Shown here in pieces: positions 55,617 through 59,769 of a DNA stretch of 64,000 nucleotides. The position numbers were made by a program, and so were the translations under genes. Position 1 is the first letter of the stretch; each line of letters begins with the position of its first letter. The stretch comes from an uncultured delta proteobacterium. GTDB taxonomy: Bacteria > Desulfobacterota > Binatia > UBA9968. Under the pieces are notes generated by a model. The model was not told the origin of the DNA. It was given only the letters and a program-made list of their open reading frames with translations, and did no database searches. Location of the stretch: assembly GCA_963811315.1 (NCBI GenBank), contig CAWERH010000002.1, positions 247 through 64,246 on the forward strand. Reading direction: 5' to 3'.

Positions 55617-56312
55617 CTACTGAGCGGCGTAGGATATCGGGTCCATAGTTCCGGCTTCAGCAAAACCTTTGAGGCGGAGCTGACAGCTATCGCAACGGCC
55701 GCAAGCCCGGTCATCCGAGCGCGGATCGTAGCAGCTCCAGGTAAGCGCGTAGTCGAGTCCGAGCGCCAGCCCGGTTTTAATGATCGCGGCTTTGCTCATC
55801 TTAAGCAATGGCGTATGGATCGTCAGCCGACTTTTACCTTCGACGCCGGCTTTGGTGGCGAGATTGGCCATCCGCTCAAACGCCTGAATATATTCCTCGC
55901 GGCAATCCGGATAGCCGCTGTAGTCGAGTTGGTTGGCGCCGAAAAAAATATCTTGAGCTTCGATGCGCTCCGCAAGCGCGAGAGCGAAGGACAGAAAGAT
56001 CGTGTTGCGCGCCGGCACGTAGGTCACCGGTATGCCCTTGCCCATCTCCGCCTCGCTGCGGCCTTTAGGCACCGCAATGTCGTCGGTCAGCGCCGAACCG
56101 CCGATAGCGCGTAGGTCGAAACTCAGAATTTGATGGGTCTTGGCCTGGAGGAACGCGGCGACTTGTTGCGCCGACGCCAATTCACGCTCATGGCGCTGGC
56201 CATAGCGAAAACTGAGAGCGTGGAGGTCGAAGCCCTGCTGCTTCGCGATGGCCGCGGCGGTGGCGGAGTCGACGCCGCCGCTCAGAAGAATGACCGCGTT
56301 GGCGCGCGCCAT
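55617..56312 (-). CDS. queC: 7-cyano-7-deazaguanine synthase
   Basis: [32 protein letters not shown]. Confidence 0.97.
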
Positions 56313-56317
56313 GGCCG

Positions 56318-56794
56318 TTACTTGGGCACCTTGGTGCCTTCCATCGGATAACGTTTTTCGTACCAGCCGACGAGGCCTTCGTTAAGCACTTTCATATTGC
56401 GGTAACCGCTCTCGTAAAGTATGCCATAAGCCAAACTGGCCAGGTGGTGGGGGCATGCTCAATAGAGAACCACCGGCCGGTCGCGCGGGATGCTCTTCAA
56501 ATAGTCTTTGAACTCCGCAAGCGGTGCCGACGCCGCGCCGAGAATGTGCACTTCGCGATACTCCTCTTCCGTGCGCACGTCGATGATCAGCGGTTTGATG
56601 CCCGACTTGAGCTCGGCAACGAGGTCTTCGATGTTGATCAACTCCAAAGGGACGTTGTCGGGAAGTGACTGCTGGGCGAACTCCGGGTATTTCGACGGAT
56701 CGGCGTGCGCTCCGCGATATGGAAGCACGAGCGCCGTCAAAATGCCGGCGAGCGCGATGATTCCTTTCTTATAAGACAAACGACAAGATCTCAT
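56318..56794 (-). CDS. Exported rhodanese-like protein with in-frame UGA (probable selenocysteine) at the catalytic position
   Basis: Signal-like N-terminus, [26 protein letters not shown](56459-56461)[41 protein letters not shown]...TAA; 46 in-frame codons after TGA complete the fold. Confidence 0.85.
56421..56458 (-). promoter_or_regulatory. Candidate bacterial SECIS hairpin immediately 3' of UGA
   Basis: GCAUGCC-CCCACCACCU-GGCCA-GUU-UGGCU-UAU-GGCAU: lower stem AUGCC/GGCAU, upper stem GGCCA/UGGCU, G-initiated loop ~22 nt after UGA (manual folding). Confidence 0.55.
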
Positions 56795-57664
56795 GGCTTT
56801 CGCTCCTTGGCCGTCGTACTTGGCGATCTTGGCCAGTTCGTCCAGCGGCAGGACGCCGGTGTAGCGTTGGCCGTTAACGATCCAGGTCGGAAAGCTGGTG
56901 ATATTCTTCTCTTTGCAGATCGGCGCCGACGGCGCCTGCGGTCCGCCCGGGCTGCATTCCACGTAGGGAATCCGTTTGGCCGAACTGCCGAACAATTTTT
57001 TTTGGTCCTGGCAATGCGGGCACCACGAGGCGCCGTAAAACTTAGCGTCGCTGCGCGACAGGGTCTCGGCCAGGCCGCGCACCCAGGGATCTTCCGGTCC
57101 CGGCGCATCGCCCCAGTAGCCGGCATAATGTAAGTGGATCACGAGGACCATAACCAAGCCTGCGCCGACGCTCTTGGCCAGCCAAGGGCCCCAGCTGAAT
57201 TTCGTCAAGTTTTTCGGCCGCTGCAATACCGTAAGAATGAAGATCACCGTCATCAATCCCAACGAGGTGAGACAGTAAGGACAGGTGGCCTTGAGTTCGA
57301 ACCAGGCCACCGACGTGAGATAGATGCTGTAAAGCAAACCGAAGAGCGAGATGACAAAGGTCCAGCGCCATTGATTGGCGGCGTCGCGATTCCACGCGAC
57401 CGCTGCCAGCAGCGCGTAAGTAAGAAAACCCAATAAAGAAGTTGGCACGCCGAACAGCGTCGACCAGCGGCTGTTGAGCACGACGTCGCAGCCCGCGCCG
57501 GCCGTGCAAAACGCCACGCGCTCACTAAATAAAGCAGAATAGGAGAGATAACCGGTGAGGCCCAGGCCGAGGACGGCTAAAACGAACAGCGGCCAATTCG
57601 GCCCAGCGCGCATAACCCTCTTGACCGGAAGTTGTTTGCCTTTTCTATTTCTGGCGTTAGCCAT
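56791..57664 (-). CDS. Vitamin K epoxide reductase (VKOR) with C-terminal thioredoxin-like domain
   Basis: FCTAGAGCDVVLNS, CPYC in a TM segment, FYGASWCPHC, FPTW; as sequenced it reads in frame into the rhodanese. Confidence 0.92.
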
Positions 57665-57680: not shown

Positions 57681-58328
57681 TTATCCTTTCAACAAATCTT
57701 CCACGTCGTTTCTGAGCCGTAACAGCGCTTCCAGATCCCGGCTGTCATAGTACCCGCGAATGCGCGCTTGCTTGTCCATCAAGACAAAGCGCGGACTGTG
57801 AGGGATCATGGCGTTTATGTCGGTGTCGGTCGGGATGGTCGCCACGCTCAGGTGAAAACCTTCTTGAATCAGATTTAACAATTGACTGCGCTGACCGGTG
57901 AGGAAAAACCAGCGCTTGGCGTCGGCATGATAACGCCCCGCATACTCGGTCAAAACCCGAGGCGTGTCGCGCTCCGGATCGACGCTGAAAGAAACCAGCT
58001 GGATTTCCGGGCGCGCGGCAAATTCTTCCTGCAGCTTGGCCATCGTCGCCGTCTGCAGCGGACAGGTGTCCTGGCAATTGGTATAAATAAAATCCGCGAT
58101 CCAGATTTTACCGCGCAGTTGCGCCAGTTGAATCGCCTCGCCATTACGCTCCGTCAAAGCGAACTCCGGCACCGAACCGTACATTTTCAAACGCTCATCG
58201 TCGGCGCTTCCGCCCACACCGAGCCGCGCGCCCGGCGCCAGTTTCAGCCAGAGCGCCGTGCCGAGAACGATGCCGAGGCCGACGACCAGCAGACCGAGCA
58301 CTAAGAAGCGGGTTTTCGATGCATCCAT
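57681..58328 (-). CDS. SCO1/SenC family copper chaperone
   Basis: DFIYTNCQDTCP, SVDPERDTP, IPHS. Confidence 0.93.
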   Translation of the reverse strand: MDASKTRFLVLGLLVVGLGIVLGTALWLKLAPGARLGVGGSADDERLKMYGSVPEFALTERNGEAIQLAQLRGKIWIADFIYTNCQDTCPLQTATMAKLQEEFAARPEIQLVSFSVDPERDTPRVLTEYAGRYHADAKRWFFLTGQRSQLLNLIQEGFHLSVATIPTDTDINAMIPHSPRFVLMDKQARIRGYYDSRDLEALLRLRNDVEDLLKG

Positions 58329-58544
58329 ATATTAATTAAAATCCGAACCGGAGAGATTCTAGCGGTAAATTTAGCGTTTGTGTAGAGATGGGGGCATGTT
58401 GGAAGCGATGCCGCGGCGTGACCTGGGCAAGCCTTAGTCGAACCGGGAGTGAAGTCGCAAAGCGAATTTAGGCGGGAAACCGAGCGGCAGCTTTTTGGCC
58501 TCAAGAAACGACTCAACAAATCTGCTCGGCGATTCGAAATGCGA

Positions 58545-59438
58545 CTACTGAACTGATCTGCGCAATAAACTAAGAAATTCCTGAGCGGCCGCTGAGAGCG
58601 GTTTTTTCTTGGCGTAGAGAATATAACTTTTGACCTGCAAATCGAGCCCGGTAATTTTGAGGATGGAAAACTCCTTTCTTCGAACTTCCTCTTGAATGAG
58701 ATCGTGGTGCAGAATGCCGACACCGGCGCCACTTTTGACCGACGCTTTGACGGCATCGAGCGATTCGTAGCGCATCGCGATATTGGGTTTGACGCCGGCC
58801 TTATTTAGTCTCCCGAGGATTTTCTCGGACCGGCTCGCGTCGTCATTTCTGGTTCTGACCACGAGCGGGAACTTTACAAGGTCTTCAGGTGTCACCTTTC
58901 TCATTGTCGCGAGCGGGTGCCCCGCCGGTACAAACGCGCAGAACTGTTCGATACGAAACCGTTCCAGCTGGAATGCGTCGATACGTTTGGGTTTCGCCGC
59001 GATGGCGATCTCGATCGTGGATTGCGCCAACATCTTCTCGATCGTCTCGCTCGTATCCGTGTAGAGTCTCATCCCTATTGCCGGGTGATTTTGCCTAAAC
59101 TGCCCCATCAGTGCGGGCAACAAAGATGCCGATATGCCGTGGCTGCCGCCCAGATTGAGAATTTCCTCAGCCTGTTTGGCATGCCTGGTCGCGTATTTAG
59201 TTTCTAACGCATTAATCTGACACAAAATTCCCTCGACATCTCTCAGAAACCCTCTTCCTCTTTCGGTCAGCTCGATGCCTTGGCGATTTTTCTTGATTAA
59301 CTTGCCGCCATAATCGCTTTGAAGACGTTGGACATGCTGTGAAACAGCAGGTTGGCTCACCCGCAGCGCGCGGGACGCTTTAGTGATGTTGAGATGATTT
59401 ACCACCGATACGAATACCTGGAGCTGGTGTAGAGTCAC
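58545..59438 (-). CDS. LysR-family transcriptional regulator (CysL/CbbR-like)
   Basis: TLHQLQVF..NITKASRALRVSQPAVSQHV HTH, LTERG; GTG start at 59438. Confidence 0.93.
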   Translation of the reverse strand: MTLHQLQVFVSVVNHLNITKASRALRVSQPAVSQHVQRLQSDYGGKLIKKNRQGIELTERGRGFLRDVEGILCQINALETKYATRHAKQAEEILNLGGSHGISASLLPALMGQFRQNHPAIGMRLYTDTSETIEKMLAQSTIEIAIAAKPKRIDAFQLERFRIEQFCAFVPAGHPLATMRKVTPEDLVKFPLVVRTRNDDASRSEKILGRLNKAGVKPNIAMRYESLDAVKASVKSGAGVGILHHDLIQEEVRRKEFSILKITGLDLQVKSYILYAKKKPLSAAAQEFLSLLRRSVQ

Positions 59439-59769
59439 AGTTGAGTCCTCTCGCAAAGAATAGGCGGCAAATCGCCGATTGTCGCCCTGTAATCCCATAC
59501 TCGCCGGACGCCAAGGAGAATAAGCATGTGTAAACAATGGTTCGCAGTCGCGTAACTTCGTTTATGCATCATGGTTACATGCGTATGTACGGAATTACCT
59601 CGATATTGTCTAGGGCTTCACTCTTGTGACTCGACCACGACGGTGAATCGCGAGCTTATCTGGAATCCACTCGCCACGAGTTCTGCCGGTATCGCGCCAC
59701 TCATTTTTTGACAGCATCGACCCGCGCCATCAACGCAACCCATCCAAAGTAAGAGCGCGATGTGATGGA

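Follow-up and report, generated by a model that had tools for sequence, protein, structure and literature searches.

Here, we report a gene that, on strong support, encodes a small, predicted exported enzyme of the sulfur-transfer type with selenocysteine (Sec, U) in place of the catalytic cysteine. The gene lies on the minus strand of the window (the whole 64,000-nucleotide stretch of DNA analyzed) at 56318..56794; it has 158 codons, running from the ATG at 56794 to the TAA stop at 56320..56318, with an in-frame TGA as codon 112. Taken as a whole, our explanation, i.e., an exported 158-residue Sec-rhodanese precursor in which the UGA at codon 112 stands for Sec, together with a gap in the assembly where the genes of the Sec machinery should be, is in our judgment very probably the right one. 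The original prediction for this DNA, an exported U-x-C selenoenzyme, is thus supported in its overall interpretation at the level of sequence comparison.

Reading frame, rhodanese domain, and predicted active site

The minus-strand frame runs up to the TGA (56461..56459) with the residues PRDRPVVLY and continues behind it, as had been predicted, for 46 codons to the TAA, ending 5 nt short of the queC ATG at 56312. A ribosome-binding site, AAGGAG (56803..56808, minus strand), is read directly 8 nt 5' of the rhodanese ATG. It had also been proposed that the listed open reading frame stops at PVVLY; the TGA stop holds, but the frame listed in the window is 401 aa long and merged with the gene upstream, a VKOR-thioredoxin fusion whose frame enters the rhodanese frame without a stop. 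This in-frame join comes from one extra base near 56797-56801, and in relatives the frames of the two genes differ. Because every contig from three soil-metagenome studies that crosses the VKOR/rhodanese junction is without one base at 56797 or 56801, the apparent fusion of the two genes is a single-base difference peculiar to this assembly and probably an assembly error.

Translated through the TGA, the 158-residue protein matches the Pfam Rhodanese family (PF00581) over residues 61-146, with the domain spanning the TGA (E 4e-15, 56.5 bits against a cut-off of 22.2) and covering profile positions 7-101 of 102. Within the rhodanese loop, L-Y-U-A-C-P-H-H, the TGA codon itself (56459..56461, minus strand) is assigned to the catalytic position by the column of its orthologues, by the Cys of distant homologues, and by alignment to solved structures. 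In the HMMER alignment to solved rhodaneses, the TGA column coincides with the active-site Cys of 6pfz (VVVCAIGLRS) and of 6mxv (LYCGSGFR), which we take to be the catalytic Cys in both. The Pfam match across the TGA and this alignment confirm the predicted location of the TGA at the rhodanese catalytic Cys.

We modeled the mature part with AlphaFold2 from 17 sequences; the model (pLDDT 90.8) has the rhodanese fold, and its top structural matches are single-domain rhodaneses (TM 0.7-0.76). Across the site, the model consists of a strand (78-81), a loop, and a helix (87-98), and U82 is the first residue after the central strand. Sulfurtransferases have a six-residue active-site loop of the C-X5-(R/T) type. 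A loop of this type is absent here: the loop reads U-A-C-P-H-H-L, the helix begins at the second His in the model, and the closing position has no Arg or Thr in the genus of the source organism, while position +4 is Arg in two other genera, labeled g3 and g5.

The N-terminus has the features of a Sec-type (export) signal peptide, which we predict by inspection at 56702..56794 (minus strand): 31 residues made up of a basic start of 10 residues, a 14-residue hydrophobic core, and PYRGAHA, with A-H-A ahead of the putative cleavage site before DPSKYP. The same n-h-c layout with A-x-A before (D/N)P is seen by inspection in all orthologues whose N-terminus is present, and the sequence itself varies. 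The signal peptide of the original prediction is therefore retained as a predicted one, for the gene and for these orthologues alike.

Conservation of the TGA column, the tail, and the hairpin

Orthologues are present in 30 of 41 related genomes, each with exactly one in-frame TGA. In all 30, at 42-78% protein identity and across three genera, the TGA occupies the same column within LVLY-U-[A/Q/E]-C-P-[H/R]-H, and this is more than chance would give; leaving out the one unpublished genome among the 30 gives 29 of 29. In 201 genomes drawn from the whole class, four more carriers came to light, from three further genera and with one TGA each (a count only, the column being unaligned); the gene is confined to one order, and no Cys form occurs in this draw at ortholog-level similarity. 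Cys appears at greater distance. Of the full-length homologues from an exhaustive profile-free search of 1.8 billion representatives, eight were aligned (32-48% identity), and the TGA column holds Cys in seven of them and Gly in one. The motifs of the seven are YCACPHH, YCACPHE, YCACPNH, YCSCPHH, YCGCPHH, YCACPHA, and YCATPHY. The Cys/TGA alternation that had been foreseen, YCxCPHH versus YUxCPHH, was therefore found, with TGA in all the orthologues and Cys in most of the distant homologues.

The part after the TGA evolves as a protein. Over the 43 codons behind it, dN/dS is 0.073 (mean dN 0.059, dS 0.81; 231 pairs from 22 sequences of the genus), and the tail is tighter than the 70 codons ahead of the TGA, where dN/dS is 0.134 (200 pairs with finite dS). 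Compared with five relatives, the tail of this genome differs by 3-4 non-synonymous and 11-19 synonymous changes, and 16 residues after U are invariant among 17 sequences. By this pattern of substitution, the part after the TGA is translated. TGA serves as an ordinary stop in the same genomes: 9 of the 30 orthologues terminate at a TGA of their own, and the upstream VKOR gene stops at TGA in relatives. The site is also covered by contigs of 95-99% identity from three soil-metagenome studies; of their 75 differences, 40 are listed, and 56459-56461 is free of these 40.

Public databases appear mostly to hold a shortened version of this protein. Most of the best 120 public homologues are 106-111 aa long, which suggests that they stop at the TGA; the four short entries that we examined (88-111 aa) all end in LY, in keeping with the expectation that standard annotation truncates the protein. 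One public entry of 154 aa prints W at the TGA column.

A G-led-loop hairpin was expected behind the UGA, and we located a SECIS-like mini-hairpin at 56429..56441 (minus strand), i.e., at nt 21-33 counted from the U of UGA, with the sequence GGCCA / GUU / UGGCU and the loop nucleotides G26, U27, and U28 at 56436..56434. The stem of 5 bp is kept as GGCCA-GUY-UGGCY in 29 of the 30 orthologues, and the remaining one has a mismatch. Variation is confined to two positions, U/C in the loop and C/U opposite G21, both of the latter pairing with G. Synonymous sites are frozen here: among 24 genomes of the genus, synonymous entropy is zero at CAC-CUG-GCC-AGU (codons +5 to +8) and at GGC (+12), against 0.7-2.0 bits at the other Leu, Ala, Ser, Pro, Val, and Gly codons of the gene. 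As the hairpin also encodes the conserved peptide H-L-A-S-L-A, its conservation is in part that of the protein, and stem covariation within the family is minimal for this reason.

The support for the hairpin comes from comparison with relatives rather than from the stability of the single sequence, which is modest (76 nt around the UGA, z = -1.35; an equal or better fold in 21 of 200 shuffles). An Rfam search of 56250-56850 at E <= 10 returned two chance-level matches and no SECIS family. We also considered a possible lower stem at 56417..56460 (minus strand), formed by nt 2-10 with nt 37-45 around the mini-hairpin. It is predicted in 23 of 24 sequences of the same genus but in none of the six from g3 and g5, and no pairing constraint shows at its variable positions; we rejected it as part of the element.

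The SECIS of Escherichia coli fdhF is likewise a hairpin shortly after the UGA that exposes G-U in its apical loop. Its loop positions are presumably G23 and U24, with G26 and U27 as the counterparts here. Compared with fdhF, the stem here is shorter (5 bp), the loop has 3-5 nt, and no bulged U is evident.

The Sec machinery and alternative readings of the TGA

The source assembly is 92.7% complete in 88 contigs. The selA gene was not found in it, matches to selB and selD fall below the curated cut-offs, tRNA-Sec was not found, and tblastn of the assembly with the selA, selB, and selD open reading frames of relatives returned an EF-Tu-like gene alone. The original prediction would have been spoken against by a genome without sel genes; the assembly, formally, is such a genome, and we judge this to be a gap in the assembly.

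This lack is what favors the strongest alternative, that the organism has lost the Sec machinery and that the gene is a relic giving a catalytically dead, truncated fragment of 111 residues, a reading that we regard as unlikely. The selA, selB, and selD genes are contiguous in all five relatives examined, whose selD carries one TGA and whose tRNA-Sec scores 73-77 bits in five of five, and the genes that flank the sel operon of two relatives match genes in mid-contig in the source assembly; no contig end beside them indicates a gap, a point for loss, but the matches are paralogue-like (55-65% identity) and in our view uninformative. Only three of the five relatives have the tRNA-Sec gene near the sel operon, at 10-52 kb, so that two gaps may be needed for its absence.

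The state of the gene argues against loss. The gene is intact, with the few non-synonymous tail differences to five relatives given above and an intact hairpin. Its relatives have the machinery: a strong selA match is present in 21 of 25 genomes of the genus and in all 16 other genomes from the order. The four genus genomes without one are 60%, 65%, 92.7% (the source assembly), and 93% complete, and two of the three other than the source assembly still carry the TGA gene. Genes for tRNA-Ile and tRNA-Phe are missing from the source assembly as well, hence gaps in its gene content are to be expected.

The assembly also carries other candidate selenoprotein genes. A scan for in-frame TGA gave 27,614 sites, of which 736 pass a codon-usage filter and 59 have a Cys within four residues; from these 59, eight were chosen by eye and six were submitted to Pfam. 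In five of the six, a Pfam domain spans the TGA: three AhpC-TSA (W/A-U-x-x-C), one CMD (C-P-Y-U), and one of the UGSC family. The sixth candidate, with UPFC on contig C30, has no Pfam domain and was set aside. A further TGA-bearing gene in the assembly is a transporter-rhodanese fusion with F-C-A-U. The number of other genes with a known selenoprotein domain intact across a TGA is therefore at least six, and it is a lower bound, as the printed list of the scan is without the rhodanese gene itself, so that the filter misses true cases. Of the five other candidate selenoprotein genes of the genome, four have a hairpin at +20 to +25 whose loop reads (A/G)GU; three of these hairpins belong to the minimum-energy fold, and the fourth was spotted by eye.

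An organism with seven such genes intact is, as far as gene content tells, a Sec user. The missing selA, selB, selD, and tRNA-Sec are best explained by an assembly gap, because the relatives have the machinery, tRNA-Ile and tRNA-Phe are also gone, and at least six other genes with selenoprotein domains across a TGA are present.

A second alternative keeps the full-length protein but has the UGA decoded otherwise, by near-cognate read-through with Trp or Cys or by local reassignment, to give a W-x-C or C-x-C rhodanese. Read-through of UGA by tRNA-Trp does occur in bacteria, and the W printed at this column in the 154-aa public entry could be counted in favor, although it presumably comes from a table with TGA as W. 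We consider this reading very improbable. TGA is a true stop for the 9 of 30 orthologues and for the neighboring VKOR gene, the clade has a complete Sec machinery, distant homologues have at this column Cys, the usual counterpart of Sec, and a SelB-type hairpin is kept at the right distance. That sequencing or assembly turned a TGC or TGT into this TGA is hardly credible: at least one single-base error is probable in the assembly, 340 nt upstream, but no direct support for an error at the TGA was found, the same TGA recurs in all 30 independently assembled genomes, and the soil contigs of the three studies have none of their listed differences on it. The UGA is thus best read as Sec, and we keep to this reading below.

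Gene neighborhood and relation to known rhodanese selenoproteins

The Sec-rhodanese gene is part of a cluster on the minus strand, in the order SCO1/SenC, VKOR-thioredoxin, Sec-rhodanese, and queC. The first gene, of the SCO1/SenC family (57681..58328; PF02630, 106.9 bits), has a match to a sigma-70-like promoter, TACACA-17-TAGAAT (58356..58384, minus strand), 28 nt upstream of its ATG; this is a consensus match only, with two found where 1.0 was expected. The VKOR-thioredoxin-like fusion gene (56795..57664) has its VKOR domain at residues 24-145 (PF07884, 91 bits) and a C-terminal domain with WCPHC, and the motif WCP[H/A]C is invariant among relatives. The queC gene (55617..56312; PF06508, 251.5 bits) begins 5 nt downstream of the rhodanese stop.

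VKOR-thioredoxin stands 5' of the rhodanese in 35 of 37 related loci and is missing in two loci of genus g5. SCO1/SenC is near the rhodanese in 33 of the 37, g5 included, and the misses reach the end of the locus. The queC gene is next to the rhodanese within the family only and is not adjacent in genera g3 and g5. Beyond what the original prediction contained, SCO1/SenC, VKOR-thioredoxin, and Sec-rhodanese are thus, by gene order among relatives, a conserved cluster. In relatives, the TGA stop of VKOR overlaps the rhodanese ATG (ATGA), and VKOR-thioredoxin and rhodanese are therefore translationally coupled. In one metatranscriptome run, two contigs lie over the VKOR gene and none over the rhodanese, which says nothing on expression.

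Bacterial VKOR proteins and VKOR-thioredoxin fusions are functional equivalents of DsbB, according to the accessible part of an earlier paper (PMC5403849). The neighbor gene resembles these fusions in that a VKOR domain is followed by a thioredoxin-like domain with WCP[H/A]C; it differs from the others in its translational coupling to a Sec-rhodanese and in the presence of SCO1/SenC in its cluster. Our search of the full-text literature returned no paper joining selenocysteine, "vitamin K epoxide reductase," and rhodanese, and a search on Binat* with selenoprotein returned nothing relevant among the matches listed.

Among curated families, the best match is NCBIfam NF041203 (rhodanese_LYCAU), with 58.3 bits where the cut-off is 115. 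We compared the gene with 12 members of this family drawn from the same phylum-level set as the gene. Both are small single-domain rhodaneses of similar length with an L/F-Y-[C/U]-x-[C/U] strand-loop motif, and both have a like-shaped hairpin, in NF041203 with the loop at nt 26-28 after its own UGA. The identity between them is 21-27%. The positions of Cys and Sec are exchanged: in all 12 members of NF041203 the motif is L/F-Y-C-x-U, so that Cys fills the canonical catalytic column and Sec comes at +2, whereas all 30 orthologues here have U-x-C. The loop continues with P-H/R-H in the U-x-C family and with P/L-N/D-E in NF041203. At pair 21-33, the hairpin has G-C or G-U in the U-x-C family and U-A in NF041203; one of these three pairs is found in all 41 distinct sequences of the two families. 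The U-A pair divides the families, a double change that counts as a single evolutionary event.

In the 2026 review (PMC13188914), rhodanese_LYCAU is the rhodanese-like selenoprotein "form 3," CxU, one of five rhodanese selenoprotein forms given in the accessible part of that source: UxxS, UxxG, CxU, UxxG, and UxxxxU/TsoB. A U-x-C rhodanese is not among the five forms in its table (PMC13188914), though the supplements of surveys might list one, and U-x-C occurs in that part of the review in two unrelated families only. By its sequence, and as far as this part of the catalog reaches, the present gene is outside NF041203 and is the mirror form, U-x-C, of the known C-x-U rhodanese type, hitherto uncatalogued. 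The original prediction had placed it in a known but rare class of Sec-rhodaneses, which is correct for Sec-rhodaneses at large, but the review table (PMC13188914) does not list the U-x-C form.

Forms 1, 2, and 4 (UxxS, UxxG) and TsoB (UxxxxU) share with our gene the location of Sec within a rhodanese domain. TsoB is also comparable in that its rhodanese is joined to a membrane thiol-disulfide protein, as the rhodanese here is accompanied by VKOR-thioredoxin. It differs in its match (NF045694, 26.3 bits against a cut-off of 805) and in having two Sec where the single-domain protein here has one; its partner is a fused reductant carrier of the DsbD type, whereas the partner here is an oxidizing VKOR-type protein encoded by a separate gene. 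E. coli PspE is an exported single-domain rhodanese, as the protein here is predicted to be. Going by the title of their 2012 paper, Chng et al. reportedly linked PspE to periplasmic disulfide formation. The match to PspE is weak (30-33 bits against cut-offs of 102-126), and PspE differs in having one Cys, no Sec, and no second Cys at +2; in E. coli, pspE presumably has neither a VKOR nor an SCO neighbor.

We propose the following path for the gene product. SelB with Sec-tRNA(Sec) would, by the standard bacterial mechanism, bind the hairpin (nt 21-33, loop G26 U27) as the ribosome nears the UGA, and the UGA at codon 112 would be decoded as selenocysteine in a single-domain rhodanese precursor. 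The signal peptide would direct the precursor to the periplasm and leave a mature domain of about 127 residues. Sec would sit where the central beta-strand ends, at the catalytic position, and could form a selenenylsulfide with the Cys at +2 (U-A-C-P-H-H). The Sec/Cys pair may then cycle between selenol/thiol and selenenylsulfide, or carry sulfane sulfur, with the thioredoxin domain and possibly SCO1/SenC as partners.

Judged from the gene neighborhood, the most likely role of the protein is in a periplasmic thiol-oxidoreductase relay linked to the quinone pool, as a selenol/thiol redox step or as a carrier of sulfane sulfur. A more specific picture is offered tentatively, and we hold it to be rather doubtful: SCO1/SenC, VKOR-thioredoxin, and the U-x-C rhodanese might form an undescribed selenium-dependent periplasmic relay of soil Binatia-type bacteria, in which the quinone-linked VKOR-thioredoxin and the copper chaperone would exchange electrons, sulfane sulfur, or copper-thiolate ligands by way of the selenenylsulfide. 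In the same picture, the U-x-C and C-x-U sisters would mean that Sec fits either position of the motif, with the hairpin equidistant from its own UGA in each.

Public annotation cuts this protein at its catalytic residue, so that a widespread lineage of uncultured soil bacteria has a conserved selenoenzyme that goes unseen and a selenoproteome that is under-counted. Beside the five forms in the accessible part of the 2026 catalog (PMC13188914), U-x-C would be a sixth type of rhodanese selenoprotein. The U-x-C/C-x-U pair offers a clean comparison of Sec at the attacking versus the resolving position of [C/U]-x-[C/U], and if the reading is true, the two sister families are a natural system for asking which position gains from selenium. 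The fixed linkage of the gene to VKOR-thioredoxin and SCO1/SenC points to a selenium-dependent step that these bacteria may use in periplasmic thiol or copper handling.

Organization around the rhodanese gene

At the junction of the VKOR-thioredoxin and rhodanese genes (56795-56802), the window has an additional base: all of the related contigs with which it was compared, which come from three soil studies, lack one base at 56797 or 56801. In the relatives, the VKOR gene is closed by its own stop, a TGA which overlaps the ATG of the rhodanese gene. The 401-amino acid ORF that fuses VKOR-thioredoxin to rhodanese in the window therefore probably results either from an error in the assembly or from a frameshift specific to this strain. 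Directly upstream of SCO1/SenC, VKOR, rhodanese, and queC, and on the same (minus) strand, lies a gene for a LysR-family regulator (58545-59537), and a sigma-70-like promoter match is located between this gene and SCO1/SenC (58384-58356).

One distant metagenome homologue of the rhodanese (P0136), full-length at 157 amino acids, carries the residues G-N-R (FYGNRPRH) at the site of the U/C-x-C motif; either this form is inactive, or its annotator used an alternative code in which TGA is rendered as Gly.

Candidate selenoproteins elsewhere in the source genome

A membrane protein of about 550 residues (contig C60, 9152-10822, minus strand), which by our reading of its sequence resembles a cation/proton antiporter, ends in a C-terminal rhodanese domain with the motif F-C-A-U. 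This domain is similar to NF041203, the C-x-U selenoprotein family rhodanese_LYCAU, at 79.7 bits, i.e., below the cut-off of 115 bits. With this domain and the U-x-C rhodanese in the window, the source genome thus contains rhodaneses of both types, C-x-U and U-x-C.

Five further genes of this genome have a Pfam domain extending across an in-frame TGA and probably encode selenoproteins, which would be cut short by annotation: C6:3130-3600(-), C61:32221-32730(-), C34:156421-157050(-), C84:31136-31636(-), and C52:129833-130546(+). Three of the domains are AhpC-TSA with U-x-x-C, one is CMD/AhpD-like with C-P-Y-U, and one belongs to the UGSC family with H-U-S-T-C. The tail of the C6 gene appears non-coding, and this gene may be frameshifted. 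Another ORF, C30:38103-38576(+), with the motif P-Y-U-P-F-C, contains an in-frame TGA, and its coding signal is strong both before and after this codon; a Pfam search of it returned no match, and it may be an uncatalogued selenoprotein.

tRNA genes and selD

ARAGORN detected 51 tRNA genes in the whole source assembly, with none for Ile, Phe, or Sec; the tRNA complement of this assembly is visibly incomplete. Among the related genomes, the selD gene in the sel operon contains one in-frame TGA in all five examined (G004, G014, G015, G019, and G037), and therefore the selenophosphate synthetase in the order of these genomes appears to be a selenoprotein itself.
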